Shown here piece by piece: positions 1 through 44,349 of a stretch of DNA of 64,000 bases (its first letter is position 1; every line of letters begins with the position of its first letter). Source of the DNA: a virus. Lineage: Duplodnaviria > Caudoviricetes. The notes under the pieces are model-generated. The model saw only the letters and a list, made by a program, of their open reading frames with translations, ran no database searches and had not been told where the DNA came from. A program made the translations under genes and the position numbers. Location of the stretch: the IMG/VR virus record IMGVR_UViG_3300037067_005519, positions 1 through 64,000 of that record. The stretch is one strand, 5' to 3'.

Positions 1-329
1 GGGGAGGGCAGGAAGAGCGGGGGAGCAAGAGGCGCGCGAAGAGGGCAGCGCTTAGGCAAGAGGGCAGGGAGGGCAGCACAATCGGCACAACCAGCAAGTA
101 GGGTAAACCCCAACTATGGCGCGCATCTAACCGCGCGCGTGTTATTCGCGCCATCCTGATAACCTGATAATATGATAATTATCATATCATTCCCTCTAAT
201 TCCTAAAATCAGATATAGGCGCGCATATCAGGGTAATATGGGCGAGTGTACTTTATCATGCCCTCCCATTGCTGCAAGTCTGCAATCTGCAATAGGTTAG
301 GTCAATTTAGTGGTGTATCATAGCCCTTT

Positions 330-800
330 ATCATCTTATCAGCAAGAGGGCAGCAAGAGCGGGGCGGGTTTGCCCTGCCCTTGCTTGACAACAATGCTGC
401 CCCATTGTTGCCCCCGCCCTTGCCCTTGCGTCAAGGCGGGAAGAGGCGGCGCGGGTTGCCCCGCTCTTGTTTGCTGCCCCTCTTGCCCTGCCCTATCGAC
501 GGGGAAGAGGCGGGGCAATGCTGCCCCATACTGCCCCGCCCTTGTTTGCTGCCCTGCCCTTGTGGTCAAGAGGCGGGGCAGAATTGCAAGCAATTGCCCC
601 GCCTTGCTGCCCCGCCTTGCTGCGCACCACCCCGCGCGAATCATCCGGGGAAGTCTGCCCCGCCTTGTTTGCTGCCCTTGCCCTTGCTGCCCTTGTGGGC
701 TATCGGGTCAAGGGCGGGGCAAGCAAGGGGCAAGCAAGGGGCAAGCAAGGGGCGGGGCGGGGTTCCCTTGTTTGCTGCCCTGCCCTTGTTTGCGGGGTGG
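330..800. repeat. Low-complexity repeat tract (TTGCCC/TTGCTGCCC/GCAAGGG vocabulary)
   Basis: Dense imperfect repeats of ttgccc, cccgcc, cttgtttgctgccc and their complements gcaagggg. The overlapping long ORFs are P/C/A/L-rich shadows. Confidence 0.8.
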
Positions 801-851
801 GATTGTACGGGCGCGCTCTTCCGCATTCTGCCGAATTCCGAATTCATCCGG

Positions 852-880
852 TTGACAACAATGCTGCCCCATACTACGGT
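852..880 (+). promoter_or_regulatory. sigma70-type promoter with ACAATGCTGCCCCAT box
   Basis: TTGACA-17 nt (acaatgctgccccatac)-TACGGT, followed by an RBS and ATG at 904. Confidence 0.55.
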
Positions 881-903
881 TTAGATAGGAAGGGGAAGCA
901 ATC

Positions 904-1008
904 ATGCCAGACGGGAAAAGGAAGCGCAGAACACGGGATACAATCCGCAAGCTATGGTATGCCCGATGGCGCGCTATCCGGTTTAATCGCCGTTTCGGCC
1001 TAGCCTAG
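904..1008 (+). CDS. Small basic hypothetical protein (34 aa)
   Basis: Hand-translated MPDGKRKRRTRDTIRKLWYARW...; purine-rich RBS; first gene after promoter. Confidence 0.45.
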   Translation: MPDGKRKRRTRDTIRKLWYARWRAIRFNRRFGLA

Positions 1009-1021
1009 AAAGGGAAACACA

Positions 1022-1183
1022 ATGCGGTATAGAATCATTGCCAGAATGGACAATCAGGAAACCTTAGCGGGTTTCGCGCGCCCTGATAGCGCTTGCAAAG
1101 TCTGCTATCGGTTGCCCTTGCTTGCTTACGTGGTCGATACTTGGACGGGGCAGACTCTAGCAGAGAATTGGCGATTGCCATAG
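1022..1183 (+). CDS. Hypothetical protein (53 aa)
   Basis: Hand-translated MRYRIIARMDNQETLAGF...; RBS aaaggga; tight gene packing. Confidence 0.6.
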   Translation: MRYRIIARMDNQETLAGFARPDSACKVCYRLPLLAYVVDTWTGQTLAENWRLP

Positions 1184-1196
1184 AAGGGGGGACACA

Positions 1197-1364
1197 ATGC
1201 GGCCGATTCTCACAAGGGGCGATTTAGCGCTATGGTATAGCCCCGACGATAGGGGCTATTATTGGCAAGATTGCAAGGGGTGGGGCAATCTGACAAGCAA
1301 GGTATTCCGCACACAAGGGGGCGCGCTGCGCGCCTACAATCGGGGCAATCTGCGCTTGACCTAG
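1197..1364 (+). CDS. Hypothetical protein (55 aa)
   Basis: Hand-translated MRPILTRGDLALWYSPDDRGYYWQD...; RBS aaggggg. Confidence 0.6.
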   Translation: MRPILTRGDLALWYSPDDRGYYWQDCKGWGNLTSKVFRTQGGALRAYNRGNLRLT

Positions 1365-1398
1365 GGGAATTCAGAATTCGGAATTCTTGAATTTGAAT

Positions 1399-1427
1399 TT
1401 GACAACAATGCTGCCCCATAGTATGGT
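1399..1427 (+). promoter_or_regulatory. sigma70-type promoter with ACAATG-N6-CATAGT box
   Basis: TTGACA-acaatgctgccccatag (17 nt)-TATGGT; AT-rich gaattc/ttgaatt repeats upstream; RBS and ATG at 1452. Confidence 0.65.
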
Positions 1428-1451
1428 TTAATAGAAGGGGAGGGAAGAGCA

Positions 1452-1652
1452 ATGGATACACTCGACACAAGAGAAGTAGAATGGATACCCGCGCAATGGA
1501 TAGAGCTAGCTTGCTGGAATCGGCCGATGGTTTGCTTTTCGCGCACCATCCGAATTCCCCGCCATGATAGGCGGGTTGCCGATAGGCGCGCCCCACAAGA
1601 GCGCGCCCCGTCGATTGTCGAAACAATGCTTGCCGATCTAATCGCGCGATAA
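1452..1652 (+). CDS. Hypothetical protein
   Basis: ORF track; RBS ggaggg; follows promoter. Confidence 0.55.
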   Translation: MDTLDTREVEWIPAQWIELACWNRPMVCFSRTIRIPRHDRRVADRRAPQERAPSIVETMLADLIAR

Positions 1653-1662
1653 GGGGAGAATC

Positions 1663-1866
1663 ATGGGAAGCAATTTTGCGGTTTGCTGTTATCTTGACGG
1701 GGTATTCTTTGTATGGCGCGCGGCCGATTGCGGGTGGGTTTCGGTTTGCGAATCATGGGCGCAGACTTTGCCCATTGCTACCCGATACCCGCTAGGCGCA
1801 GCGCAGACAATCTTGACCCGTATGGCGCAGCAATTCCCTTGCTGCCCTTGTTTCCTAGTCGTTTAG
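1663..1866 (+). CDS. Hypothetical protein
   Basis: ORF track; RBS ggggag. Confidence 0.5.
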   Translation: MGSNFAVCCYLDGVFFVWRAADCGWVSVCESWAQTLPIATRYPLGAAQTILTRMAQQFPCCPCFLVV

Positions 1867-1897
1867 TCAACCACAACCACACAAGAGGGGAAAAGCA

Positions 1898-2062
1898 ATG
1901 TCCCGAAAACATTTTACCGCCCTTGCGCAAGCAATCGCCGAAATTTCAGACTTGGAAGAGCGGGGCAGGGCAGCGCGCCTTATCGCCGATGTTTGCGCGG
2001 CAAGCAATGGGCGGTTTGATCGGCAGCGCTTCTATCATGCTTGCGGGGTGAACAATGCTTGA
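1898..2062 (+). CDS. Small conserved phage protein (xRKxF...NxRFDxxRFxxACG type)
   Basis: Hand-translated MSRKHFTALAQAIAE...SNGRFDRQRFYHACGV; preceded by CACAAC leader and RBS. Confidence 0.7.
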   Translation: MSRKHFTALAQAIAEISDLEERGRAARLIADVCAASNGRFDRQRFYHACGVNNA

Positions 2063-2396
2063 AATTCACCCTAGCAGACTCCACAACCGGGAAGAGCGCG
2101 CCCTAGCAAAGTTAGCGCGAATAGCGCGGGGCGATTGCTGGCAAGGCGGGGCAAGGGCTAGCGTAATCGCCGATAGGCTAGCGAATATGGGCGCGCCGCA
2201 ATACCTTGACGTAGTTAGCGCGGCATATACGAATTCGCGCGGGGAAGCGCGGGAATACCTTGCTTATGAGTGTCCAGAATGCGGCGCGCCTTGCTTAGGG
2301 GAAAGCGCGGCCGCGCAGCATTGCCAGCAAGAGGAAGAATGGCAAGAGGAAGAGCAAGAGGCGGAAGAGGAAGAGGCGGAAGAGGAAGAGGGCTAG
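2055..2396 (+). CDS. Zn-finger protein with poly-Glu tail
   Basis: YECPECG...HC motif; C-terminus EEEWQEEEQEAEEEEAEEEEG. Confidence 0.7.
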   Translation: MLEIHPSRLHNREERALAKLARIARGDCWQGGARASVIADRLANMGAPQYLDVVSAAYTNSRGEAREYLAYECPECGAPCLGESAAAQHCQQEEEWQEEEQEAEEEEAEEEEG

Positions 2397-2439
2397 CAGA
2401 CTCTACACAACCACAACCACAACCACAAGAGGCGGAACA

Positions 2440-2961
2440 ATGCCGAATTACAATACCACAACCGGAATTCCCTATGGGGTATTGTCGGGGAACAATTGCC
2501 CCGAATTGCTTGACGATATTATGAGCAATGGCGATAGCTTGACCTATCGCGCTTGGAAGGAAGAGCTAGGCGAATCCGTCAAGGGCGCAATCGTCGGGGC
2601 TATCGACGATTACACTTGCCGCGCGGCCGCAATCGTCGATTCTCTGGACATTGCCGAAATTGTCGATAGCTTGCTTGACGGGGGGCTAGGGGATGATTGG
2701 CAATCGGAAGAGGAAGAATACGAATACGAATACACCACCCCGCGCGGCAAAGTTAAATTGCTTATGGGGTGGTTAGGGGGCGCGCCTCTTGTTTGGGTTT
2801 GCGAATCCCCATACGTTGCGAATTGTCGGGGGTGTTCCCCTTGTGTTCCGGGGGCAGGGGATTTAGATACACCCGATACGGATGGTATGCAAGCATATTG
2901 CTTGCCCCCGGATGATATGCCCGATGATTGGCAAGGGGAAGCGCGCTTGATAGAGGGCTAG
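2440..2961 (+). CDS. Conserved acidic phage protein
   Basis: TGIPYGV...WLGGAPLVWV..SPY...CSPCVPGAGDLD motif, recalled from uncharacterised phage early proteins. Confidence 0.75.
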   Translation: MPNYNTTTGIPYGVLSGNNCPELLDDIMSNGDSLTYRAWKEELGESVKGAIVGAIDDYTCRAAAIVDSLDIAEIVDSLLDGGLGDDWQSEEEEYEYEYTTPRGKVKLLMGWLGGAPLVWVCESPYVANCRGCSPCVPGAGDLDTPDTDGMQAYCLPPDDMPDDWQGEARLIEG

Positions 2962-3024
2962 CAGACTCCACAACCACACAACCACAACCACAACCACAAC
3001 CACACAACCACAAGAGGGAAAACA

Positions 3025-3423
3025 ATGCTTGCAACCATTCTACACTCTGAAAAGGATAGCGAATCGGCGCGCCTTGCCGCGCTTGACGAATTCACCCGCG
3101 CTTATGTCGAGTGCGCGCTATGGTCAAGTATCGACGATAGCGGGGAACCCCTTGACAAGAGCAAAAGCGCGGGGGACATTGCCCCCGAAACCTTGCTTGC
3201 AATGGCGGAAGATTGCAAGCAATTCCAGCAAGCTAACTACCGCATGATTGCGGCCGATCTATCCCGCGCGGGTTTCCATTTCTGGTTGACCCGCAACCAT
3301 CATGGGGCAGGGTATTGGGATGGTGATTATTCGCGCAAGATAGGGCAGATATTGACCGATCGCGCGCAAGAATTCGGGGAGTGTTCCCTATACGTCGGGG
3401 ATGATTCGCTAGTATACTGCTAG
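3025..3423 (+). CDS. Conserved phage protein (FWLTRNxHGAGxWD family)
   Basis: AYVECALWSS...GFHFWLTRNHHGAGYWDG motif. Confidence 0.8.
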   Translation: MLATILHSEKDSESARLAALDEFTRAYVECALWSSIDDSGEPLDKSKSAGDIAPETLLAMAEDCKQFQQANYRMIAADLSRAGFHFWLTRNHHGAGYWDGDYSRKIGQILTDRAQEFGECSLYVGDDSLVYC

Positions 3424-3484
3424 CAGACTCCACAACCACACAACCACAACCACAACCACAACCACAAGAGCAAGAGGGAAAACA

Positions 3485-3949
3485 ATGCTTGCAACAATGC
3501 CAGCAATCAGGGCGCGCGGGGAATTCGATAGCGCTTGCAATCATGCGGCGCGCTATGCGAATCGACACAACCGGGGGCTAGAAGGGGCGGAAGAATTCTT
3601 GCGCCGCGCGGGGTGGGGCGCGCAGACTTTCGGGATAGAATACGTCGATTGCGCGGGGCGGGAATTGGCGTATCTGAATACGGGGGAAACCTATGATCTA
3701 ACCATAGGGCAGGAAGGGGAGGGGGAAGTATTTTCTACATCATGGGGCGGATGGTTGGAAGAGGCGGAAAGCGCGCATTGTGAAGAGGAAGGGGTTATTC
3801 GTTGCGGGTATTGCGGGGAGTTTACCCCGATGGAAGAGGGCGCAGACTGGCATGATACGGTTTGCGAATCATGCGGCCGATACGTCGATAGTGGCGAATT
3901 GCCAGAGAAGGAAAAGGAAGAGGAAGAGGCGGAAGAGGAAGAGGGCTAG
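3485..3949 (+). CDS. Acidic Zn-ribbon protein with poly-Glu tail
   Basis: YLNTGETYDLT, CGYCG...CESCG; ends EKEEEEAEEEEG. Confidence 0.75.
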   Translation: MLATMPAIRARGEFDSACNHAARYANRHNRGLEGAEEFLRRAGWGAQTFGIEYVDCAGRELAYLNTGETYDLTIGQEGEGEVFSTSWGGWLEEAESAHCEEEGVIRCGYCGEFTPMEEGADWHDTVCESCGRYVDSGELPEKEKEEEEAEEEEG

Positions 3950-3998
3950 CAGACTCCACAACCACAACCACACAACCACACAACCACAAGGGCAAGCT

Positions 3999-4523
3999 AT
4001 GTTTAATCGCGCAGAGTATACGCTAGAATCGGGGCGTTTAATGTCCTATGCTTTTCCGGGGGGCTATCCGATTTACTACCTTGCGAAAGATTGCGGGGTA
4101 TTGTGTCCAGAGTGCGCGGGGTTGCCAGAGTGCGCGCAAGCTAGCCCCGATGATTCGCAATGGTATCTTATCGGGGCAGAATGCAATTATGAGAATCCCG
4201 CGCTTAGTTGCGACCATTGCGGGAAGCGCATAGAATCCGCCTATTGTGAAGAGGCGGAAGAGCAAGAGGCGGGGCAGGGCAGCAAGGCGGAAGAGGCGGA
4301 AGAGGCGGAAGAGCAAGAGGCGGAAAATTTGGATTGTATGCCGCTATCAGACTTGCAAGCATATTGCCAGCAAGCAAACCACCCCGCGCTCTTGCGGGAA
4401 TATGCGGCAACAAAAGCGCGCGCCATCGAAACCCGCCTTGCGGGTTTAATCCCGCAAGCGCTGCAATGGGAAAGCGCTTGCGACAATCTTTATAAGCTAC
4501 TCCCCAGCAATCTAAAATGGTAG
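3999..4523 (+). CDS. Conserved phage Zn-binding protein (YAxPGGYP family) with acidic linker
   Basis: YAFPGGYPIYY...LCPEC...CDHCGKRIESAY; start placed after the CACAAC leader. Confidence 0.75.
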   Translation: MFNRAEYTLESGRLMSYAFPGGYPIYYLAKDCGVLCPECAGLPECAQASPDDSQWYLIGAECNYENPALSCDHCGKRIESAYCEEAEEQEAGQGSKAEEAEEAEEQEAENLDCMPLSDLQAYCQQANHPALLREYAATKARAIETRLAGLIPQALQWESACDNLYKLLPSNLKW

Positions 4524-4600
4524 CAAGTGCGCGCGGGGTTCCCCTTGCCCTTGACAAGGGCAACCCCGCGCAGACTCCACAACCACACAAGAGGGAAGCA

Positions 4601-4900
4601 ATGGACACAACCACAATGGAAGCAATGGACACAACCGAAACCCCCGTATTGTTTCGGGTCGATAAGGGCGGGGAAGTATTCGCGCTCTTCCCGTCGATTG
4701 CGGCCGATCTATCCGGGCATTGCTCTTGCTATCAGCATATAGGGCAGCATTGCGCGGCCGATTACGGGGGATGTATGCGGGAAAGCAAACCCGCAACCCC
4801 CGCGCAGTATGCCGCGCTTGCGGAAGAGCTAAGGGGGCGGGGCTATCGGTTGCGGGTGGTGCGCAGACAATCGGCCGCAATGCGCAAGCAATGCCGATAG
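4601..4900 (+). CDS. Conserved phage protein (VxFR...ALFP...YxHxGQH family)
   Basis: PVLFRVDKGGEVFALFP...CYQHIGQH...ATPAQYAALAEELRGRGY. Confidence 0.8.
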   Translation: MDTTTMEAMDTTETPVLFRVDKGGEVFALFPSIAADLSGHCSCYQHIGQHCAADYGGCMRESKPATPAQYAALAEELRGRGYRLRVVRRQSAAMRKQCR

Positions 4901-4969
4901 GGCGCAGACTCGACAACCACAACCACACAACCACAACCACACAACCACACAACCACAAGAGGCGCAGCA

Positions 4970-5146
4970 ATGCCGAAACCCCATAGGAAAGAATTGATAG
5001 AGGCAATCGAAACCCTATTGATATGGGCCACAAGAGGAAACAAGGCGGGGAACCCCTATTGCAAGGCGGAAATAGAGCAAGCATTGCGCTTGCTTGCGCA
5101 AGAGCGGGGATTGTCTGCCGATTGCTGGTTAGACTTGGACATATAG
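4970..5146 (+). CDS. Hypothetical protein (58 aa)
   Basis: Hand-translated MPKPHRKELIEAIETLLIWATRGNKAGNPYCK...; follows CACAAC leader. Confidence 0.65.
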   Translation: MPKPHRKELIEAIETLLIWATRGNKAGNPYCKAEIEQALRLLAQERGLSADCWLDLDI

Positions 5147-5159
5147 GGCGGGGCAGGAA

Positions 5160-5445
5160 GAGCAAGGGCGCAGACTCCCCGCGCAGACTTCGCAACCACT
5201 AGGGCGCAGACTCCCCGCGCGGGAAGCGCGCAGACTCGACACAACCACAAGGGAAGAGCGGGGCGCAGACTCCCCGCGCAGACTCGACACAACCACACAA
5301 GGGAAGAGCGGGGCGCAGACTCCCCGCGCAGACTCGACAAGAGGCGGGGCGCAGACTCCCCGCGCAGACTTCGCAACCACAACCACAAGGCGCAAGCTAT
5401 GCCCGATACACTCCCCGCGCAGACTCCCCGCGCAGACTCCCCGCC
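5160..5445 (+). repeat. Tandem cluster of GCGCAGACTCCCCGCGCAGACT units without intervening genes
   Basis: About 12 CAGACT copies in under 300 bp, several followed by short cacaaccac runs and gggaagagcg. Confidence 0.9.
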
Positions 5446-5790
5446 CATTGCCCCGCCTTGCTGCCCTTGCTCTTGCTGCCCTGCCCCGCCTTGCTCTTCC
5501 CGCCTTGCTCTTGCTGCCCTGCCCCGCCTTGCCGATCTATCGCCCCGCCTTGCTGCCCTCTTGCTGCCCTGCCCTCTTGCTGCCCTCTTGCTTGCTCTTG
5601 CTGCCCTCTTGCTGCCCTGCCCCGCCTTGCCCTATTCTAGCCCCGCTCTTGCCCCGCCTTGCTCTTGCTTTGCTGCCCTGCCCCATTGCTGCCCTTGCCC
5701 CGCCCCGCTCTTCCTAGCCCCGCTCTTGCTTGCCAGCAAGAGGGCAGCAAGAGGGCAGCAAGAGGGCAGCAAGAGGGCAGCAAGGGAACC
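5446..5790. repeat. Low-complexity tract ending in inverted (CAGCAAGAGGG)n
   Basis: ccctcttgctg repeats at about 5556-5615 are complementary to the cagcaagaggg tandem at about 5735-5785. Confidence 0.8.
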
Positions 5791-6114
5791 CCGCGCAGAC
5801 TCCCCGCCCCTATGCCGATTGCGCGGCATTGTCCGATTGCCCGATGGTAGCGGGTTGACCGGGTTTTCCGGTTGTGCCGATCGTAGGGATTCTGTCGAGT
5901 CTGCCGGTTGTGCCGATTGGCCGATTTTGTCCAACATGCCGGTCGCCCGGCCCTTTAACCGGGCGCGAAAAACCGCTAAGGTCGCGCAACCGGAACGGAA
6001 AATCTGCTAAGGGGCGGCGGCCGAAAATTGCCGGCGGCCGGCGGCAACGTGATTCGCATTCCCTGGCGCGTTGTCAAGTCTTGTGTCCGAAAAACTTGAC
6101 AATGCCGGACACAA

Positions 6115-6480
6115 CGGCCGGCGTCGGGCGTCGGGCGGCCGGCGTCGATCTAGCAGCCCGTGGCGGCCCCATGCCGGCGTCGATCCGGGCGGCCCGGTGT
6201 CGGCGGCCGTTTCTTCCGCCCGTCGATCTAGCGGGCCTCTTGTGGCCCCGTGGCGGCCGGCGTCGATCCGGGCGGCCCGGCCGGCGGCCGATCCGGGCGG
6301 CTGGCGGCCGATCCGGGCGGCCGGCTCCTGCCCGTCGCGTCGATCCGGGCGGCCCGGCCCGCGTCGATCCGGCCCGCGTCGGGCGGCCGATCCGGGCGGC
6401 CGGCGTCGATCCGGCCGGCGTCGATCCGGCCGGCGTCGATCTGGCCGGCGTCGGGCGGCCGATCCGGGCGGCCCGCTGTC
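6115..6480. repeat. GC-rich imperfect repeat GGCGTCGATCCGG(G)CGGCC
   Basis: About 13 CGATC-containing units. Confidence 0.85.
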
Positions 6481-6548
6481 AGCCTGGTTGCAGCCTGGTT
6501 GCAGCCTGGTTGTCAGCCTGGTTGTCAGCCTGGTTGTCAGCCTGGTTG
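6480..6548. repeat. Tandem repeat CAGCCTGGTTG(T) x6
   Basis: Six 11-12 bp copies, each containing CCWGG. Confidence 0.95.
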
Positions 6549-6832
6549 CCGGGTCGATCTTATTGGCGTCTTGTGGCGCAAAGTGCCGGCGTCGGGGAAG
6601 CTCGGCAACCGGCCGGCGTCGGGGAAGCTCTAAGCGCATCGAGCGGATAGCGCTAAGCGCCAACGGCCGATAGCGCTAAGCGCCGGCGGCCGTCGCCCTT
6701 GCGCGCCGCTGCGCATAGGGGGACATTTTGTAGCCCTTTCCGCAGACGTGCGCAAGTGGCGCAAAGAGAAGGCCCGGCGGGCAACCACGTCCGCCGGGCC
6801 ACAAGGGAAGCAACCACACACACAACAGACTA

Positions 6833-9800
6833 TCAAAGCCTCTTCACAAACTGTTCTAGCCCCGCAACTCTTGCGCGTTCGGCCTCTTGTTCGGCTCTTG
6901 CCTTGTCAAGTCGGGCCGTCGCCGCTGTCAGATTCTTTTCGGCGGCGTCAACCACGTTGCCCTCTAGCACGTCGGGGTTGCCCAGATAGTGGGCCACGTC
7001 CCAACGGCCATGCTCGGCCAACAGTTTCGACGATACGATGCCTGCCCTTCCCATTGCTATCCTCTGTCAACCAAGTCCCATGTATACACGGGTCGCGTGT
7101 CGCCCGCTCCCCGGAATGCACAACGGACTCCCTTGCCCATGCCCAGCCACACGGCGTAGGCCATTTGATCGTTCGGGTATTCGCTTACGTGGTCGGCGAA
7201 GTACACGCGGGCCTTGCTCACGTCGGCCGCTTCCCATGCCTCTTCCCGCTTGCGGTCAAGGTAGGCCAGCATTTCGGTTTGCCCTAGCGGCGTCAACTGG
7301 TCAAGCTCTACAAAGTGTACCATTATCGGTTGCTCCCATAGTCGCACACGTCGCAAACATCATCGTGGTCGCCGGGGCTACGCGGGTCTTCGCGCGTGCC
7401 GGCGGCGTCAAGGTGTTCGGCCGGGGCGTCTTTGCCGTAGTCGGTTTCGACGTAGCAGCCGCATTGTTTGCACTTCACTAGCATGGTTGTCGTTTTGTGG
7501 TGAATGGTGAAGCCTTGCCGTACCGCGCGATGTTTTCCTTCCGGTGTATCGCGGCAAGTTGTCGGGTTATCCGCTGCCACAACGGCGTTCGGGTTCGCAA
7601 GGCGTCGATTGCCTCTTGCATGATTGCCTTGTCGGCGGCCGTGAAGCTCATAGTTCACTCCCCCGGTATGCTTCCTCTATCTCGGCAATCGCATCGTCGG
7701 TCACAACGGCGGTCACGTCAACGTGAAACCCGCCGGCGCTGCCCTCTGGCAGGAAACCTTCCCGGCACGGCTTGGCAATCATCCGGTCAACGTCGCGCTG
7801 GTCAAAATAGTTTGACGATTCGCATTGGCAATTGCCTTCCCAGATACTTTCGTCCAGCGCTTCGGTTTCATCGTCGGTCAATTCTCGGCTCGCTTCCCAT
7901 TGGGTGCCGAGAAAAGACAAGTAGTAGGAACCGGAAAAGCTACAACAATGCGTCACTTGCCGGCGGTCGAAAACATACACGCCGAAAATGCGCGCCGTCT
8001 TGTCAAGCACGTCGGGGGCAATCCAGTGTTCGCGCTCGTCGATCTTGACAATCCACACGTCGGGCAGCAATTCGACCCGCTCGCCCTCTTCCAAGCCCTC
8101 ATGGTTTCCAAAGCGGCGGTAGATTCGCGGCTCTTTGTCTTGCTCCCACTCTTCCCGCGTATACAACCATCCGCTGTTGTCTTCGCTATCCAAGTGGAGC
8201 AAGGTCACAAGCGCGGGGTCAACGGCCGTTCGGTCGCCGTCTTTGAATTCGGCGGCCTCTGTAATCAGGGCGGCGCTCGGGGTAAACGGTTTCTTTTCGG
8301 TTGCGGTTGTCATGGCGTTTCTTCCCTTGTCACGATGGTAACTGGTTTGCTCCACTCGCCCGTGGGCGAAACCAGTATTGCGGCGCTTTGTGTAAACTTG
8401 CCCCCTGCCCGGTGTTGTATGGTTGTCACTTTTGATCGGTTCGCGGCCCCGCCGGCAAAGACGCGCGTTTCCCCTATCCTCATTTCGCGTAGGGCAGGAT
8501 AGGAAGGAACGGGCAATCTCATTCTTTCACCTTTCGCCCGGTCAACCGTTCGATGGTTTTCCGCGCTTCCTCTTTCGACGGTGGCCCCATGATTCGCGCG
8601 CCCACGTCAGACATTCGCAACGTCTTGTAGGCGATTCGCAACTGGTGTTGCTCCGGTACGCTAAGCTGTTTTGTTTTCATCGTGTTGGGCATTCGCCTTG
8701 CGTGAAGAGGATTGCTTTGTCGTCGTCGGCAATCATCATCCACCCGGCGGCCGTTTCTTCCACGCGGTTGCCCACTCCCTTGTCGGCGGCAAGGATTGCC
8801 CCGGTCAAGAGCGCGGCGTCATGCGGGTTCGGCACTTGGATGGTTTGCACGATGGTTGCCGTGGTTGCGTTTGCCATATACTCTACTATACCACAATGCT
8901 AGCCCATAGTCAAGTCATTTTCCAGAAAATCTAGGGCGGCGTCACGGTCGGGCGTCTTGAATTCGACGTGGAACCGCTTGCCCGATGGTCCTATGTCGGT
9001 TGCGTACACGCGGAACGTGCCGGGGAACCCGGCAAGCTCTGCCATCAAAGCCTCTTCCTCCCCATGTTTGCGGTCGAATCGACGGATAAGCTCGTGCATT
9101 GCTTTCCCCTCCATTGTGGTAAAGTGACTACCTTACACAATGGTAGGAAGCGGGTCAAGGCCCCCTATCCGGCCCACCACTCACGGGCCGCGTTTGTCCA
9201 GTGCGCCCGGCCTCGACAACCACGATTCGCACACGTCAAAGTGGTGTTGGGCGTCTTCCCGGTTGACCGTTCGGGCGGGCCACAATCCGCCGTTCGGGTC
9301 GCGCAGATAGATGCCCGTGAAGCCCGGCGTTTCGTCAAGCAGGGTCACGCCGACAATCTTGTCGGGGTAGGCGGTCAAAGTCGTATGCTGGAATTGTTCG
9401 GGCGCTTGCACTTGCATGGTTCTATCCTATGACTTGTGTGATTGCCGCTTTTCCGATCTTGTATTCGTCGGCGGTCGCTTCTCTCATGCGCCGCTCTTTG
9501 CCGCTTGCGTGCGCGTGTCGCCTATGGCAGATTGTCGGGCCTAGCCCGTGGATTGTCCAGTCGGCATTGCCGCATTCATCGCACACAACTAGCTTTTCGT
9601 TGGGCGTCGGCGTACCGCGAATCTTCCACGTCGGGTAGTCAATTGGCGCGCTCATATCTTGTAGCCCTTATCGTGGAAGTGTTCGCGCCATAGGTCGGTC
9701 ACTTCCTTGTCGCCCTGCCCTTCCGCCGCTTCCACAATCGCGTCTTTGACGTAAGCAAGGCCATCGTCGGTCAACTCGCCGAACAATACGCCGATCTTCC

Positions 9801-10563
9801 GCCCGCTCGGCAACGTGATAGCGTTAATGCACCGCTTGCCGGCGGCGCAGTGTTGCGGGCCGTCGCTCTCTTCGCTATCGTCGCCGCGCTTCGGATAATC
9901 GTCGCTGTCGTAAGTGGTTTCATCGTCGGGGCGGGCCGGGGCCTTGCCCTCTCTTTTCAGGCGCTTGCGAATCGCCTTGCCGCAATCGTTGCACCACAAG
10001 TCAGCCTGATAAATGTAGCTCATTGTTTCGGTTCCGGCCGTGGTTGTGGCGGCACGTTTCGCGGCGGGTAAAGTCCCCATGCTCCCACCTTATGCTTGCC
10101 TTGCTTGTGCTTTCCCCAATGCGAATGCGCCACAAGCGCACCGATCTGGAAAGCCATGCGTCGAAAATCGTTGTCGCCCCTCATAGGTCACACGGGTAGT
10201 CAGTCGCGCCGGCCTTGTGCTGCGCCCGGTAGTGGGCGCGGCTGATAGCGGCTTGTCGGGCGCGGTATTCGTCACGGCTCTTGCGGCCCATGCGCCACTG
10301 TCGAGCTACAAGCTCTGACAATCGCAAGGCCCGGCCGTATATCGTCAAGTCGCGTGTCATGCTTCCACCGCTGCAAAGGTCCAAGTGGGATTTAGGCGCT
10401 GCAATTCACCTAAGCACACGTCAACCCGATGCTCTGGAATGCGGGAAGCGTGAATGCGCAAGGTGGTAGTCTTCGCGCGTTTGCCGTCACTGCCGGCCCC
10501 GGCCAGCAAGACGGCCCGCCGCATTCCCTTGCCCTTGCATCGAATGTAGTATTCTTTCGTCAT
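6833..10563 (-). other. Cluster of small hypothetical early genes (6833-7054, 7057-7323, 7323-7484, 7648-8313, 8310-8522, 8519-8680, 8677-8877, 8899-9114, 9181-9417, 9422-9655, 9652-10023, 10357-10563)
   Basis: Abutting or overlapping same-strand ORFs with coupled stops and starts; several have CxxC motifs. Confidence 0.7.
8885..8913 (-). promoter_or_regulatory. Repeated early promoter/operator, copy 1 (probably leaderless)
   Basis: TTGACT-atgggctagcattgtgg-TATAGT; ATG at 8877 lies 7 nt after the -10. Confidence 0.85.
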
Positions 10564-10999: not shown

Positions 11000-11455
11000 T
11001 CAAAATTGCGGTTGCTCGCGGGGCGTATAGTCGGGGGTGTTTTCCGCCGTCATGGGCGGCCCAAAGCTGGCCGTGTTGCCGGCGCTGTCGATTAGGATAG
11101 AGCGGAAGGGGCGCGGGGGCAACTCGATTCGCTTGGCAACCCGGTATAGCGATTCTTCCGTTCCCCATATTTCGTTGACCGGCCCGTCTTTCGCGCCCGG
11201 CTGATTGCCGGCAAGTTCCTGCCAACGGTAGCGGTACACGGGCGGCGCGGCGTCATACTGCGCTTTGATCTTCGCATACTCTTCCGGCTCTTGGATTGCC
11301 CTTAGCAAGTCGGTGGCAACGTAGCGGTCGCCCTGCCTTGCTTCGCGCTGCAAAGCGCGAATAAGGCATTGCAACGGCTCGGCATTCAGCCCTTGCAAGG
11401 CGCATATTGCGCTGCCGGTGTTGGGGTCGGTTCCGGTTTGCACAAGTTGGAACAT
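11000..11455 (-). CDS. Hypothetical protein
   Basis: ORF track; preceded by a CACAACCACAAC leader; stop abuts promoter copy 2. Confidence 0.65.
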   Translation of the reverse strand: MFQLVQTGTDPNTGSAICALQGLNAEPLQCLIRALQREARQGDRYVATDLLRAIQEPEEYAKIKAQYDAAPPVYRYRWQELAGNQPGAKDGPVNEIWGTEESLYRVAKRIELPPRPFRSILIDSAGNTASFGPPMTAENTPDYTPREQPQF

Positions 11456-11479
11456 GGTAGTGTTGTGGTTGTGGTTGTG

Positions 11480-12124
11480 TTACCGCTTCGCGGTTCGCTT
11501 CGCGGTTCGCTTGGCGGTTCGCTTGGCGGGTTTCTCTGCCCGCGCTTGCCAGTCGTCGGCGCTGATATAGCGGGCGGCCGGGGTGTTGCCCTTCTCGGCA
11601 ATCAGGGCGGCAAGCTCTTTCTTCACCTTTGCCACGGGGAACCCAGCGCACGGCCGGTATCCGCCGGCAAGCGATTCTGCCGCGCTTTCCAGCGTAGTGG
11701 GCGAATCCCCGCCTTCCGATTCGTTGTCGATTTCCGCCATCAGCAAGCGCTTGAGTTCCGGCGAAAGTTTCGACCCCATGCCGATCTTGTAGGCGGCGTC
11801 GATTGCCGTCTCGGCTTCCCCTATCCAATCGTAATCGACATGCCCGCCCGCGTTGTGGGCGTCACACGCGGCGCTCGCCCGCTCTAGGGCGGCAAGCAAC
11901 TGGTTGGGGATGGTGAGAAATTCCAAGTCGTGTTCGGTATTCAGCCGTTCACAAAGCTCGTCGATTTCCAATTCCCCCAGCGGTTGCAAGTGGCCGGCGT
12001 CACTGGCAATGTCATACTCGGCAAGGCATTGGGGCTTAGTTGCTCCCCCGATGCCCTTGCGCTGCCAGTAGCGCAGCCCGGCAAGTATGGTGGCGAATGC
12101 CCGATGATCGACGTTAAGATACAT
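11480..12124 (-). CDS. Conserved phage protein with C-terminal (KRTA)n tail
   Basis: ATILAGLRYWQ...EIDELCERLN motif; a 12-bp tandem encodes AKRTAKRTAKRTAKR. Confidence 0.7.
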   Translation of the reverse strand: MYLNVDHRAFATILAGLRYWQRKGIGGATKPQCLAEYDIASDAGHLQPLGELEIDELCERLNTEHDLEFLTIPNQLLAALERASAACDAHNAGGHVDYDWIGEAETAIDAAYKIGMGSKLSPELKRLLMAEIDNESEGGDSPTTLESAAESLAGGYRPCAGFPVAKVKKELAALIAEKGNTPAARYISADDWQARAEKPAKRTAKRTAKRTAKR

Positions 12125-42431: not shown

Positions 42432-42502
42432 TGGCCGATGGTGTAGTGGCAACACAACGGACTTTGGTTCCGTTATCCCAGGTTCGAGTCCTGGTCGGCC
42501 AG
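42432..42502 (+). tRNA. tRNA-Gln(TTG)
   Basis: Acceptor TGGCCGA/TCGGCCA; anticodon arm ACGGA-CTTTGGT-TCCGT; T-arm CCAGG TTCGAGT CCTGG. Confidence 0.92.
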
Positions 42503-42779
42503 CTTCGCTTTAGGAGACGACGGTTGTGAGCATGAAAACTCGACGGCTATCGACGGCAGAAACGGGGATTTTAGGAGCGCTTGGGAGCTTGGGTAAGATA
42601 GAGAATATCGCTCTAAGTCCTTGACAAGGCTCGTATTTACGAGGATAATGAGGTTATTCGAGGAAACCAAGAAAAGATTTTGGTTCCTTTTGATTAAAGT
42701 TCCAAACCCTTTGTTGCCGAAGACTTAGGACGACACATGGATTTTGCGACGGTCATTTCGACGGTGATTTTTGCCTGTG

Positions 42780-42865
42780 GTACTGTCGGCGTACTGTCGG
42801 CCGTCGAGTCGTTGTACTGTCGGATTTAGCCCGGCCTTGCTACTGCCGTCGCATCCGTACTGTCG
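42780..42865 (+). repeat. GTACTGTCG direct repeats (candidate integrase arm-type sites)
   Basis: Four copies at about 42780, 42791, 42814 and 42857, just upstream of the integrase; CGACGG repeats at about 42517-42558 and 42747-42766. Confidence 0.6.
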
Positions 42866-42888
42866 TCCACCACACCACGGGAGCTAAA

Positions 42889-44349
42889 ATGTCCACGTTG
42901 CAAGCATCGCCACAGCCACCAGAAAAGCCCACACCTGACTTTCCTCTATTCGCGCACGGGAACGGGCAATGGGCCAAGTGTATAGGCCCACGGGGTAAAC
43001 AGAAGACAATCTACTTCGGTCCTTGGGACGATCCGCAAGGAGCCTTAACCAAGTATCGGCAATACGTCGTCGATGAGGCCAACAAGCCCAAGCCCAGGTC
43101 GCAACAGAAGAAGCCCAAACCGCCCACCAAAGACTTCCCCCTCTATGCTCACCGCAACGGCCAGTGGGCCAAGACGGTCAAGAACAAGGACTACTATTTT
43201 GGACCTTGGGACGACCCGACCGGGGCCTTGAATCGGTGGCTCGATCAGAAGGATCACTTGCTCGCTGGCAAGCCACGAGTGCTACCGGCGGCGACCTACA
43301 CCTTGGGGGAGATTTGCCGGCGCTTCCTCAACTCGAAACGGTCAAAAATGGCCACCGGGGAATTGACATTTGGAACGGTCGATGGATACCAACGGGAATG
43401 CGATCGACTGCTCGCTCACTTTGGCGAAGACAAGATCGGTGATGAGTTGACGCCGTTCGACTTCGAGGGATACCGGCAGTCGCTATGCAGGAGCCGGGTA
43501 CAGGAAGGACGGAAGGGCAGAGCGTCGGTGGGCAAGCCTCTGGGTCCACACGCCATGACCAACGCGATCATGGCTATTCGGACCCTACTAAAGTATGCCT
43601 ACAAGCAGGACATGCTCTGCCGCCCGGCGAAGTTCGGCGACGGGTTTGACAAGCCCTCCTCAAGGGTGATGAGGGAAGCTCGGAACAATCGACCGAGAAA
43701 GCTGTTCACGCCGGCCGACATCAAGGAAATGCTCCGCGAGGCCAAGCAGCCTCTCAAGTCGATGATCCTCCTCGGGATCAATTGTGGCTTTGGAAATACC
43801 GACTGCGCCAAGATGGAGTTTCGACACCTTGATCTTCCCAAGCAGTGGGTTGACTACCCCCGTCCGAAGACTGGTGTGATTCGATGGTCGCCGTTGTGGC
43901 CCGAAACTTGTGCTGCGCTGCACGAGTGGATCAAGATGCGTCCTGAACCACGATATGCTGACTGCGAGAATCGAGTCTTCCTTACGCTGAAAAAGCATAC
44001 GCCCTGGGAGAACGCCAAGGGTTATTGTCCTGTTGGCAACGCGATGGCCAAGGTGATTCGCACCATCGGCATTGACCAGTTCGGCATTGGGTTCTATGCC
44101 CTGCGGCACACGTTCTTCACGATTGCTGAGGGATGCCGGGATCAGAAGGCCGTCGAATTCATCATGGGGCACGCGCCTGATTCACGCGATATGTCGCCCC
44201 ACTACCGAGAGGAGTTTACGCGGGAACGGCTAATGGCTGTGACGCAGTGCGTTCACGATTGGCTATACGCTCGGCCGGCGTCTCCACCCGTCGTCGTGGC
44301 CGCCCCAGTGGTGTTGGAACTGCTGCCCGATTCGACCGCCGTTGCATGA
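42889..44349 (+). CDS. Tyrosine integrase, Planctomycete type, with duplicated N-terminal arm-binding domain
   Basis: Two copies of FPL.AH.NGQWAK...YFGPWDDP.GAL; LLGINCGFGNTDC, RPKTG, YALRHTF, IMGH, HY. Confidence 0.92.
   Translation: MSTLQASPQPPEKPTPDFPLFAHGNGQWAKCIGPRGKQKTIYFGPWDDPQGALTKYRQYVVDEANKPKPRSQQKKPKPPTKDFPLYAHRNGQWAKTVKNKDYYFGPWDDPTGALNRWLDQKDHLLAGKPRVLPAATYTLGEICRRFLNSKRSKMATGELTFGTVDGYQRECDRLLAHFGEDKIGDELTPFDFEGYRQSLCRSRVQEGRKGRASVGKPLGPHAMTNAIMAIRTLLKYAYKQDMLCRPAKFGDGFDKPSSRVMREARNNRPRKLFTPADIKEMLREAKQPLKSMILLGINCGFGNTDCAKMEFRHLDLPKQWVDYPRPKTGVIRWSPLWPETCAALHEWIKMRPEPRYADCENRVFLTLKKHTPWENAKGYCPVGNAMAKVIRTIGIDQFGIGFYALRHTFFTIAEGCRDQKAVEFIMGHAPDSRDMSPHYREEFTRERLMAVTQCVHDWLYARPASPPVVVAAPVVLELLPDSTAVA

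Follow-up and report, generated by a model that had tools for sequence, protein, structure and literature searches.

The joints of a small-gene module

The window analysed here consists of bases 1 to 64,000 of a 148,650-bp IMG/VR virus record (IMGVR_UViG_3300037067_005519) from an uncultured phage, the genome of which is labelled G000. It contains a module of 13 small genes (g1 to g13, 904-5146), all starting with ATG, and most of the gene junctions between 1.9 and 5.0 kb are occupied by the same repeated element. This element, referred to below as the joint, typically contains a GCAGACTC box, a CA tract made of A and C only, and a Shine-Dalgarno (SD) sequence. The module is the sole plus-strand, positive-skew block of the genome and is located at its single strand switch, nearly all of the region from 6.8 to 147.8 kb being read on the minus strand. 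The "direct terminal repeat" of the record is a 127-bp exact overlap of its ends; the assembly is therefore circular with an arbitrary base 1, and a long terminal repeat was ruled out. The array region extends to the left past this origin to about 147,850. No DNA similarity to isolated phages was found.

The order TAGCAGACTC, CA tract, AAGAGG or AAGGG, 5 to 8 nt and ATG is observed at four joints (g7/g8, g8/g9, g9/g10 and g10/g11). At g12/g13 and g11/g12 the box is located 3-47 nt past the TAG, and g5/g6 displays the CA tract and the SD without box. Only an SD is found at the short junctions g1/g2, g2/g3 and g4/g5, and g6 and g7 overlap, a copy of the box being present 20 nt inside g7. The pure A/C tracts of the seven CA joints measure 17, 24, 46, 38, 34, 14 and 46 nt, that is a run of 17-46 nt at six of the seven, and at each of them the tract runs straight into the SD. 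The motif CCACAAGAGG(G) is found 5 to 8 nt before the ATG at six joints (orientation 32:0). The overall composition of the joints is 46% A, 39% C, 13% G and 3% T.

The GCAGACTC box was counted 22 times in the window for 2.1 expected copies (19 of them on the plus strand within 1150-5802), and CACAACCAC 32 times for 0.7 expected (29 on the plus strand within 1872-5386). An unbiased count of 8-mers gave 32 plus-strand and no minus-strand copies of CAACCACA in 7.6 kb of module, versus nine copies in the other 141 kb; for GCGCAGAC these values were 20, zero and five. Runs of at least 14 nt composed only of A and C are present 10 times in positions 1-7000, versus 0.2 times in shuffled sequences. 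These counts confirm the sequence-only reading, which had seen one and the same element at nearly every one of these junctions.

For five of six junction RNAs, no pairing is predicted over the tract and the ribosome-binding site (RBS), with z values from -1.4 to +2.0; the exception is g11/g12. The 3' arm of the hairpin present at this junction runs into the GCAGACTC box, and a hairpin with a different stem sequence (read by eye) is found at the equivalent place of the related contig L010 (see below). No other hairpin, such as a T7-like RNase III site, was detected at the joints, a promoter scan revealed no promoter at the CA joints, and a search in Rfam gave only sub-threshold chance matches. 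The boxes are spaced by 322-621 bp, which is the length of the genes.

In viral contigs, at least 119 loci contain (CAACCA)3, none of them with an array of CA joints comparable to that of G000. Of 126 such tracts, 70 are coding and six precede an SD and a start codon; the tract alone is therefore not diagnostic. Within G000, A/C runs are also present upstream of ThyX (36170) and of the genes at 125415 and 41957. A GU-rich antisense small RNA directed against the CA tracts was considered and rejected, there being only four reverse copies of CACAACCAC. Of these, the pair inspected, at 11.46 kb, belongs to the sense leader of a gene on the minus strand; the other two copies are located at 10040 and 123575.

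The first gene behind the promoter-like repeat at 852, g1, encodes a 34-aa Arg/Lys-rich peptide with an isoelectric point (pI) of 12. The proteins g7 to g11 are acidic (pI 4.1-4.6) and display CxxC pairs, in agreement with the acidic or Zn-binding cargo announced from the sequence; an anti-defence role is a guess based on the place of these genes in an early accessory block. No function was assigned to the module proteins by Pfam or PHROGs. The structural model of g8 has a pLDDT of 95 yet corresponds to no known fold (Foldseek E > 0.1; VIA Z at most 5.1, which is the noise level), and a first protein-pattern scan of viral contigs with g8 gave no matches. Distant relatives of g8 were found in metagenome-assembled genomes of Phycisphaerae, Desulfobacteraceae and Coriobacteriia and in the Xylophilus phage Lumi. 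The promoter-like repeat TTGACAACAATGCTGCCC is present three times in the window (385, 852 and 1399) with an 18-nt core for which 0.1 copies are expected, and this core carries a palindrome that differs from the GCGCAGAC box.

Eleven of the 13 module genes end with TAG, as do 14 of 16 in L010. Among crude gene calls on the minus strand the share is about 23% (Fisher p 2e-5), a bias for which base composition does not account. Read-through of TAG to yield a polyprotein, or recoding, was rejected: two of the six stop-to-ATG distances are in frame and none of the six tRNAs called in the genome by ARAGORN is a suppressor.

Table 1. Positions of the promoter-like repeats, genes, joints and repeat blocks in the window. 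L010 and L014 are related contigs described in the next section.
Feature	Position	Strand	Remarks
Degenerate copy of repeated early promoter (TTGACAACAATGCTGCCCC...)	385..413	+	18-nt core
Early promoter-like repeat before g1	852..880	+	TTGACA, 17 nt, TACGGT
g1	904-1008	+	Homologue in same order in L010
g2	1022-1183	+	Homologue in same order in L010
g3	1197-1364	+	Homologue in same order in L010
Early promoter-like repeat before g4	1399..1427	+	TTGACA, 17 nt, TATGGT; conserved in L010 and L014
g4	1452-1652	+	Homologue in same order in L010
g5	1663-1866	+	Homologue in same order in L010
Junction g5/g6	1864..1900	+	TAG, TCAACCAC..., 17-nt A/C tract, AAGAGGGG, ATG; no GCAGACTC box; start TAGTCAACCAC also present in L010
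g6	1898-2062	+	Overlaps g7
g7	2055-2396	+	Overlaps g6
TAGCAGACTCCACAACC copy inside g7	2071-2088	+	
Junction g7/g8	2394..2442	+	TAGCAGACTC, 24-nt CA tract, AAGAGG, ATG; three alleles among assemblies
g8	2440..2961	+	173 aa, acidic; family of 63 homologues
Junction g8/g9	2959..3027	+	TAGCAGACTC, 46-nt A/C tract, AAGAGGG, ATG; identical in four assemblies
g9	3025..3423	+	132 aa, phrog_1915; widespread phage family without assigned function
Junction g9/g10	3421..3487	+	TAGCAGACTC, 38-nt A/C tract, AAGAGCAAGAGGG, ATG
g10	3485..3949	+	154 aa; Zn-ribbon-like C-terminal part; acidic tail identical to that of g7
Junction g10/g11	3947..4001	+	TAGCAGACTC, 34-nt A/C tract, AAGGGC, ATG
g11	3999..4523	+	174 aa; two CxxC pairs; phrog_18238
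Hairpin in junction g11/g12	4531..4571	+	-40 kcal/mol, z -3.1; no U run
Box, CA tract and SD before g12	4570..4603	+	14-nt CA tract, AAGAGGG, ATG
g12	4601-4900	+	
Junction g12/g13	4898..4972	+	TAGGGCGCAGACTCG, 46-nt A/C tract, AAGAGG, ATG
g13	4970-5146	+	
Terminal stack, 12 CAGACT units	5147..5445	+	Mostly CCCCGCGCAGACTC or GGGGCGCAGACTC
A-free C/T-rich repeat block (CTTGCTGCCC family)	5446..5809	+	4.6 copies of inverted 11-mer CAGCAAGAGGG, one CCCCGCGCAGACTCCCCGCCC unit
Isolated CA-hexamer tract	11460..11481	-	22-nt A/C run between TAA stop and ATG of 151-aa gene; without SD

Joints in related genomes

Three contigs from other samples (L018, L019 and L020) are at least 99% identical to G000, and their g8/g9 and g9/g10 joints match those of G000 at every base. 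The identity of junctions in independent JGI and ENA assemblies rules out an assembly artefact, and the repeats are real.

All 13 genes have homologues in the viral contig L010/L013 (145,969 bp), with conserved order and 41-87% identity (about 75% protein identity overall). Additional small genes are found between g5 and g6 (X1) and between g10 and g11 (X2 and X3), each bounded by joints. Whole-gene differences at joints, in line with the gain and loss of cassettes expected from the sequence alone, are thus observed between G000 and L010; the reordering that was also expected is not. The order TAG, A/C-rich repeats with CAACCAC as core, AGAGG and ATG is preserved at every joint of L010, except that the g7/g8 joint has no SD. 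Its repeat units are the 11-mer CAACCACGTTT, the hexamer CCACAA, the heptamers CGCAAC(A/C) and nine copies of CCCACAA. None of these units is present anywhere in G000, nor are the sequences CACGTTTCAACCAC (eight copies) and CCCACAACCCACAA (seven copies) of L010, and the G000 unit GCAGACTCCACAACC is nearly absent from L010. The sole heptamer shared is CAACCAC, with plus to minus ratios of 34:0 in G000 and 33:1 in L010.

The joints are more alike within one genome than orthologous joints are between G000 and L010, which is the signature of slippage and gene conversion. The genes g7 and g10 have the same last 35 nt (acidic tail EEAEEEEG), and g9 and g10 the same first 24 nt (MLAT); judging from these shared ends, conversion tracts in G000 reach into the coding sequence. 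In L010, a joint of about 60 nt is found on either side of X1, and the two are nearly identical; G000 has one joint at this place. Such a footprint would be expected from unequal recombination.

Differences between close assemblies were also located. The independent assembly L140 is 99.3% identical to L010 over 5.4 kb, and no differences were found over 5.1 kb of genes and 12 joints. All four differences (L140, 5120-5192; L010, minus strand, 3780-3870) are in the terminal stack: three are substitutions and the fourth is a unit of 36 bp. With respect to G000, the changes in L019 and L020 are restricted to the tail of g7 and the g7/g8 joint and include a 15-bp acidic-repeat unit and a 12-nt insertion before the box; L018 shares these changes and has, further upstream in g7, a small number of substitutions as well as two indels of a single base. 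L020 has also lost 71 bp (window 2355-2425) between two copies of AAGAGGCGGAA, of which the first belongs to the codons of the g7 acidic tail and the second to the g8 SD; this deletion makes g7 continue out of frame across the g8 start. The sequence-only reading had supposed a length tunable by slippage. On the contrary, the CA-tract lengths are identical at 12 joints between L140 and L010 and at two to three joints between L018-L020 and G000, in consensus assemblies that are blind to within-population variation, and there is therefore no sign of fast tuning.

A sister lineage (L014, L015 and L141-L146), in which g8 has 53-73% identity, contains no CAACCAC at all and a different accessory gene set.

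The box, the terminal stack and the flanking repeats

On the plus strand between 148,269 and 6,742, GCAGAC is present in 30 copies, with a consensus that extends to (G/C)(C/T)(G/A)GCAGACT(C/T). Seven copies are within genes, three are upstream of promoters and four supply the TAG. The GCGCAGAC motif is strictly oriented in L010 (11:0) as in G000, and in all three lineages the last gene is followed by GCGCAGAC units, even in that of L014, which has no CA joints.

About 12 CAGACT units had been noticed behind the last gene. Exactly 12 copies are present at 5171-5433, with no credible open reading frame (ORF) between them and an irregular spacing of 13, 23, 24, 35, 13, 37, 13, 23, 13, 55 and 13 bp. 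The stack includes 2.3 copies of a 50-nt unit, and counterparts were found in L010/L140 and in L014. As shown by the comparison of L140 with L010, it is the fastest-changing spot. The stack had been taken for a pile of empty units; since it is conserved in kind in three lineages and hypervariable, it is more than a leftover of such units. Taken together, the boxes within genes, the presence of GCGCAGAC in L014 without CA joints and the fast change of the stack point to an oriented recognition site on DNA or RNA.

The module is bracketed by dense short-repeat blocks (148.1 kb to 0.85 kb and 5.15 to 6.8 kb), the families of which are common to both sides and present in both orientations; the CTTGCTGCCC family is thus also found left of the module. 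Among the repeats shared by the two blocks are TGCCCCGCCTTGC, CTTGCTGCCCTGCCC and an inverse GGGCAGCAAGAGG. The 4.6 tandem inverted 11-mers could pair over 24-27 bp with the preceding A-free C/T-rich stretch of about 290 nt. The convergent non-coding gap that follows (window 5810-6830) contains tandem CCGGCCGGCGTCGAT (about seven copies), TGTCAGCCTGGT (about six) and AGCGCTAAGCGCC... (about three), and beyond these arrays are a conserved GCGCATAGGGGGACA..TGTAGCCCTTT segment and then a hairpin, with counterparts in L010 and L014. This gap may be an origin or packaging region.

Possible functions of the joints

The joint is real, statistically extreme and reproducible, and it relates both to CA-rich enhancer or standby leaders and to repeat-mediated modular shuffling. 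We favour, with a probability of roughly 0.55, the view that the joints are intercistronic leaders which have been homogenised and which function as a CA-rich, unstructured enhancer of translation or as a standby site, and that they evolve by slippage and gene conversion, the turnover of cassettes being a by-product. The early operon would be read by the host RNA polymerase from the repeated sigma-70-type promoters (TTGACA-17-TATGGT). Each leader would consist of the upstream TAG with its GCAGACTC box, the A/C-only tract of 14-46 nt and an AGAGG-type SD located 5-8 nt before the ATG. Because a tract of A and C only is unable to fold back on itself and can contain neither start nor stop codons, it would constitute an open landing or standby lane for terminating or free ribosomes, and we infer that such a lane beside a rather weak SD raises initiation at each gene independently. 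Replication slippage would have produced the lineage-specific hexamer, heptamer and 11-mer units. Gene conversion would homogenise the joints inside a genome, reaching the flanking codons. Unequal recombination between joints would delete or duplicate whole genes, and it probably built or fed the gene-less stack. As the joints are direct DNA repeats, their microsatellite form and the cassette turnover would follow.

Experiments in Salmonella and E. coli have shown that initiation can be raised more than 10-fold by ACA motifs and CA-rich segments placed upstream of the SD, and that an ACAA repeat can substitute for the SD (PMC3879156). Single-stranded CA-repeat tails serve as standby sites for ribosomes, and their effect peaks at 16-18 nt (PMC5934652). 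The joints resemble these elements by their A/C-rich sequence, predicted to be single-stranded, directly upstream of the SD, with repeated ACA and CAA and lengths that cover the 16-18 nt optimum; like the defined enhancers, six of the seven joints are predicted to present about 16 nt or more of such sequence beside the RBS. The unstructured A/C enhancer proposed from the sequence alone therefore agrees with the published elements. The latter can work without an SD, and we count in favour of the leader the g7/g8 joint of L010 and the minus-strand gene at 11455, where a CA tract is present without SD. The joints differ from the known enhancers in being natural hexamer or heptamer microsatellites of up to 46 nt, placed at seven consecutive cistron boundaries and tied to a TAG and a box, and they are known from sequence alone.

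The start-associated sequences (SAS) and extended SAS (ESAS) of Cluster K mycobacteriophages (PMC3203893) are likewise asymmetric repeats in one orientation a few bases before the ATG of non-structural genes. Both SAS and joints include the SD core and sometimes overlap the upstream stop codon. Like SAS, in which the SD core is located 3-7 bp before a start codon that is mostly ATG, the joints present an asymmetric repeat with an SD core, 5-8 nt before the ATG and in a single orientation. However, SAS is a fixed 13-mer (GGGATAGGAGCCC), to which ESAS adds a hairpin-forming inverted repeat, whereas the joint is a variable unstructured microsatellite with a separate box. Its sequence does not match the 13-mer consensus and it is thus an analogue of SAS, not a member.

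If the leader reading is true, the module would provide natural, operon-scale CA-rich standby or enhancer leaders, an effect hitherto known from single enterobacterial mRNAs and synthetic tails. To study why CA stimulates initiation, the two related phages would then offer a ready series of tracts that range from 14 to 46 nt and are built from hexamer, heptamer or 11-mer units. The theme of regulatory repeats serving as modular gene-exchange seams (PeSL, for promoter early stem-loop, SAS and boundary sequences) would be extended to an unstructured element acting at the level of translation.

Several observations weigh against this reading. The minus-strand early genes under the same promoter family are mostly without such leaders. 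In the sister lineage, homologues of g6, g8, g9, g10 and g12 are connected by short GGAGG junctions without CA tract; the tract is therefore not required, the CA joints are clade-specific, and the gene flux of the module is independent of them. The deletion in L020 removes the stop, the box and the CA tract, so that an entire joint is lost. Some stack units carry a CA tract and SD-like purines (AAGGGAAGAG) with neither gene nor start codon behind them. The seven GCAGAC copies within genes, two of which in g10 come from G000-specific amino-acid changes, and the TAG bias are left unexplained by a leader. In addition, the enhancer effect has been measured in enterobacteria only, which may not be the host group of this phage.

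The leader does not account for the GCGCAGAC(T) box, a second motif of strict orientation that probably binds a factor. According to a view that we hold as possible while leaning against it, a factor binds DNA or nascent RNA at the GCGCAGAC(T)(C) boxes and the stack, which would be oriented sites functioning as a stoperator-like roadblock or silencer or as an N/nut-like control of elongation. The CA tracts would then be mere spacers to the next RBS, and the two readings are compatible. This view would explain the 30 plus-strand GCAGAC copies with a consensus extended on both sides, the copies in genes and upstream of promoters, the strict orientation in both genomes, and the units past the last gene of L014. 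The in-gene copies of g10 that arise from G000-specific codon changes and the fact that L140 and L010 differ in the stack alone also point to it. The g1 peptide is a candidate partner of the box, nothing more: it is confined to lineages bearing the box and CA features, but this co-occurrence concerns two lineages only. The stoperators of Cluster A mycobacteriophages are similar to the GCGCAGACTC box, being asymmetric, numerous, in one orientation relative to transcription and often on stop codons (PMC9283540, PMC3203893). In contrast to stoperators, which are spread genome-wide, match the operator of the early promoter and bind a known repressor, the box is confined to one module of 8.5 kb, with five GCGCAGAC copies in the other 141 kb, and the promoters carry a different, palindromic operator. 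Moreover, the gene joints of L010 are almost without boxes. Should the view be correct, the oriented GCGCAGAC box and the hypervariable stack may mark a new pair of regulator and site.

The sequence-only reading had interpreted the array as a platform for gene capture and shuffling, that is, joints which exist to recombine and serve to capture, excise as circles and reorder cassettes, in the manner of PeSL with a translational unit in place of promoter and terminator. One part of this proposal is retained: G000 and L010 differ by three whole genes, each of them bounded by joints, with X1 between near-identical 60-nt joints, and the joints are homogenised within genomes. Indel alleles associated with junctions among assemblies at least 99% identical, the gene-less stack behind the last gene and the precedent of T4-like phages (PMC2839356) also speak for it. 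The idea of a dedicated platform, which we consider unlikely, agrees poorly with the shared gene order of G000 and L010, with the gain and loss of module genes in the L014 lineage without repeats, and with the occurrence of g8-family genes in about 70 other contexts without such joints. No recombinase is encoded nearby, the sole integrase-like ORF being 38 kb away with a weak Pfam match, and the single deletion seen directly (L020) used the SD-like AAGAGGCGGAA rather than the box or the CA tract. As with the joints, short repeats bound small early or accessory genes in the PeSL of T4-type phages, where recombination explains indels and replacements (PMC2839356, PMC4122927), and indels between close relatives are bounded by repeats here too (X1-X3, the alleles of L018-L020 and the stack unit of L140/L010). 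However, PeSL consist of a sigma-70 promoter and a terminator hairpin; the joints have neither, which sets them apart from PeSL, and act, if at all, on translation.

Integron attC cassettes also form co-directional arrays of small unrelated genes between recurring elements, as in the joint array. They possess attC hairpins with adjacent intI, attI and Pc, whereas the joints are unstructured and adjoin none of these. The array is thus not an integron, having no attC hairpins and no nearby integrase (the nearest, at 42889-44349, is 38 kb away). It is not a CRISPR either, since the spacers are conserved protein genes of corresponding length, and the spacing in the stack is also irregular. In this respect the earlier statement that the joints are neither attC-like nor CRISPR-like holds.

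A two-part control code would unite several of these elements, with a probability that we rate as low as that of the capture platform. The oriented GCGCAGACTC box, located on stops and stacked at least 12 times, would be read by a phage factor (g1 as candidate) that sets elongation, termination or silencing, and the CA microsatellites would be evolvable ribosome-loading spacers doubling as recombination seams. That such a code would be the translational counterpart of PeSL cassettes, with the stack as its fast-evolving part, appears similarly improbable.

It is still less likely that the joints and the A-free C/T block are Rho-utilisation (rut) sites which grade or terminate early transcription upon translational uncoupling. 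The junctions are rich in C (39%), poor in G (13%) and predicted to be unpaired, the C/T-rich and G-poor block at 5446-5733 is located at a convergent operon end where a terminator is needed, and no intrinsic terminator with a U run was found after g13. Typical rut regions are nevertheless longer than most joints (30-69 nt), the joints directly adjoin an SD and an ATG and would be covered by ribosomes, and the sister lineage does not have them. The lowest probability is given to a role in the biology of DNA ends, in which the stack and the flanking repeats would mark a genome end or origin (packaging site, injection stop or Chi-like array) and the box would act on DNA. In favour of it, the module coincides with the one strand switch of the genome and is its sole plus-strand block of positive skew, dense iterated repeats extend over 0.4-1.6 kb and are common to the left and right flanks, and the motif is clustered and strictly oriented. 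On the other side, the genome ends are not placed by the assembly, which gives only a 127-bp overlap, and the box on stop codons is left unaccounted for.

Outside the module, the window contains genes for a TyrRS/TrpRS-like enzyme, ThyX, a sigma factor and an integrase-like protein, together with tRNAs. At 42432-44349, a tRNA-Gln adjoins an ORF of 486 aa (42889-44349) with a weak match to phage integrases (E 1e-5, below the Pfam gathering score), a combination that may reflect a temperate lifestyle of this 148-kb phage. Beyond the window, ARAGORN detected on the plus strand a tRNA-Cys with the unusual anticodon ACA (genome 131462-131533).

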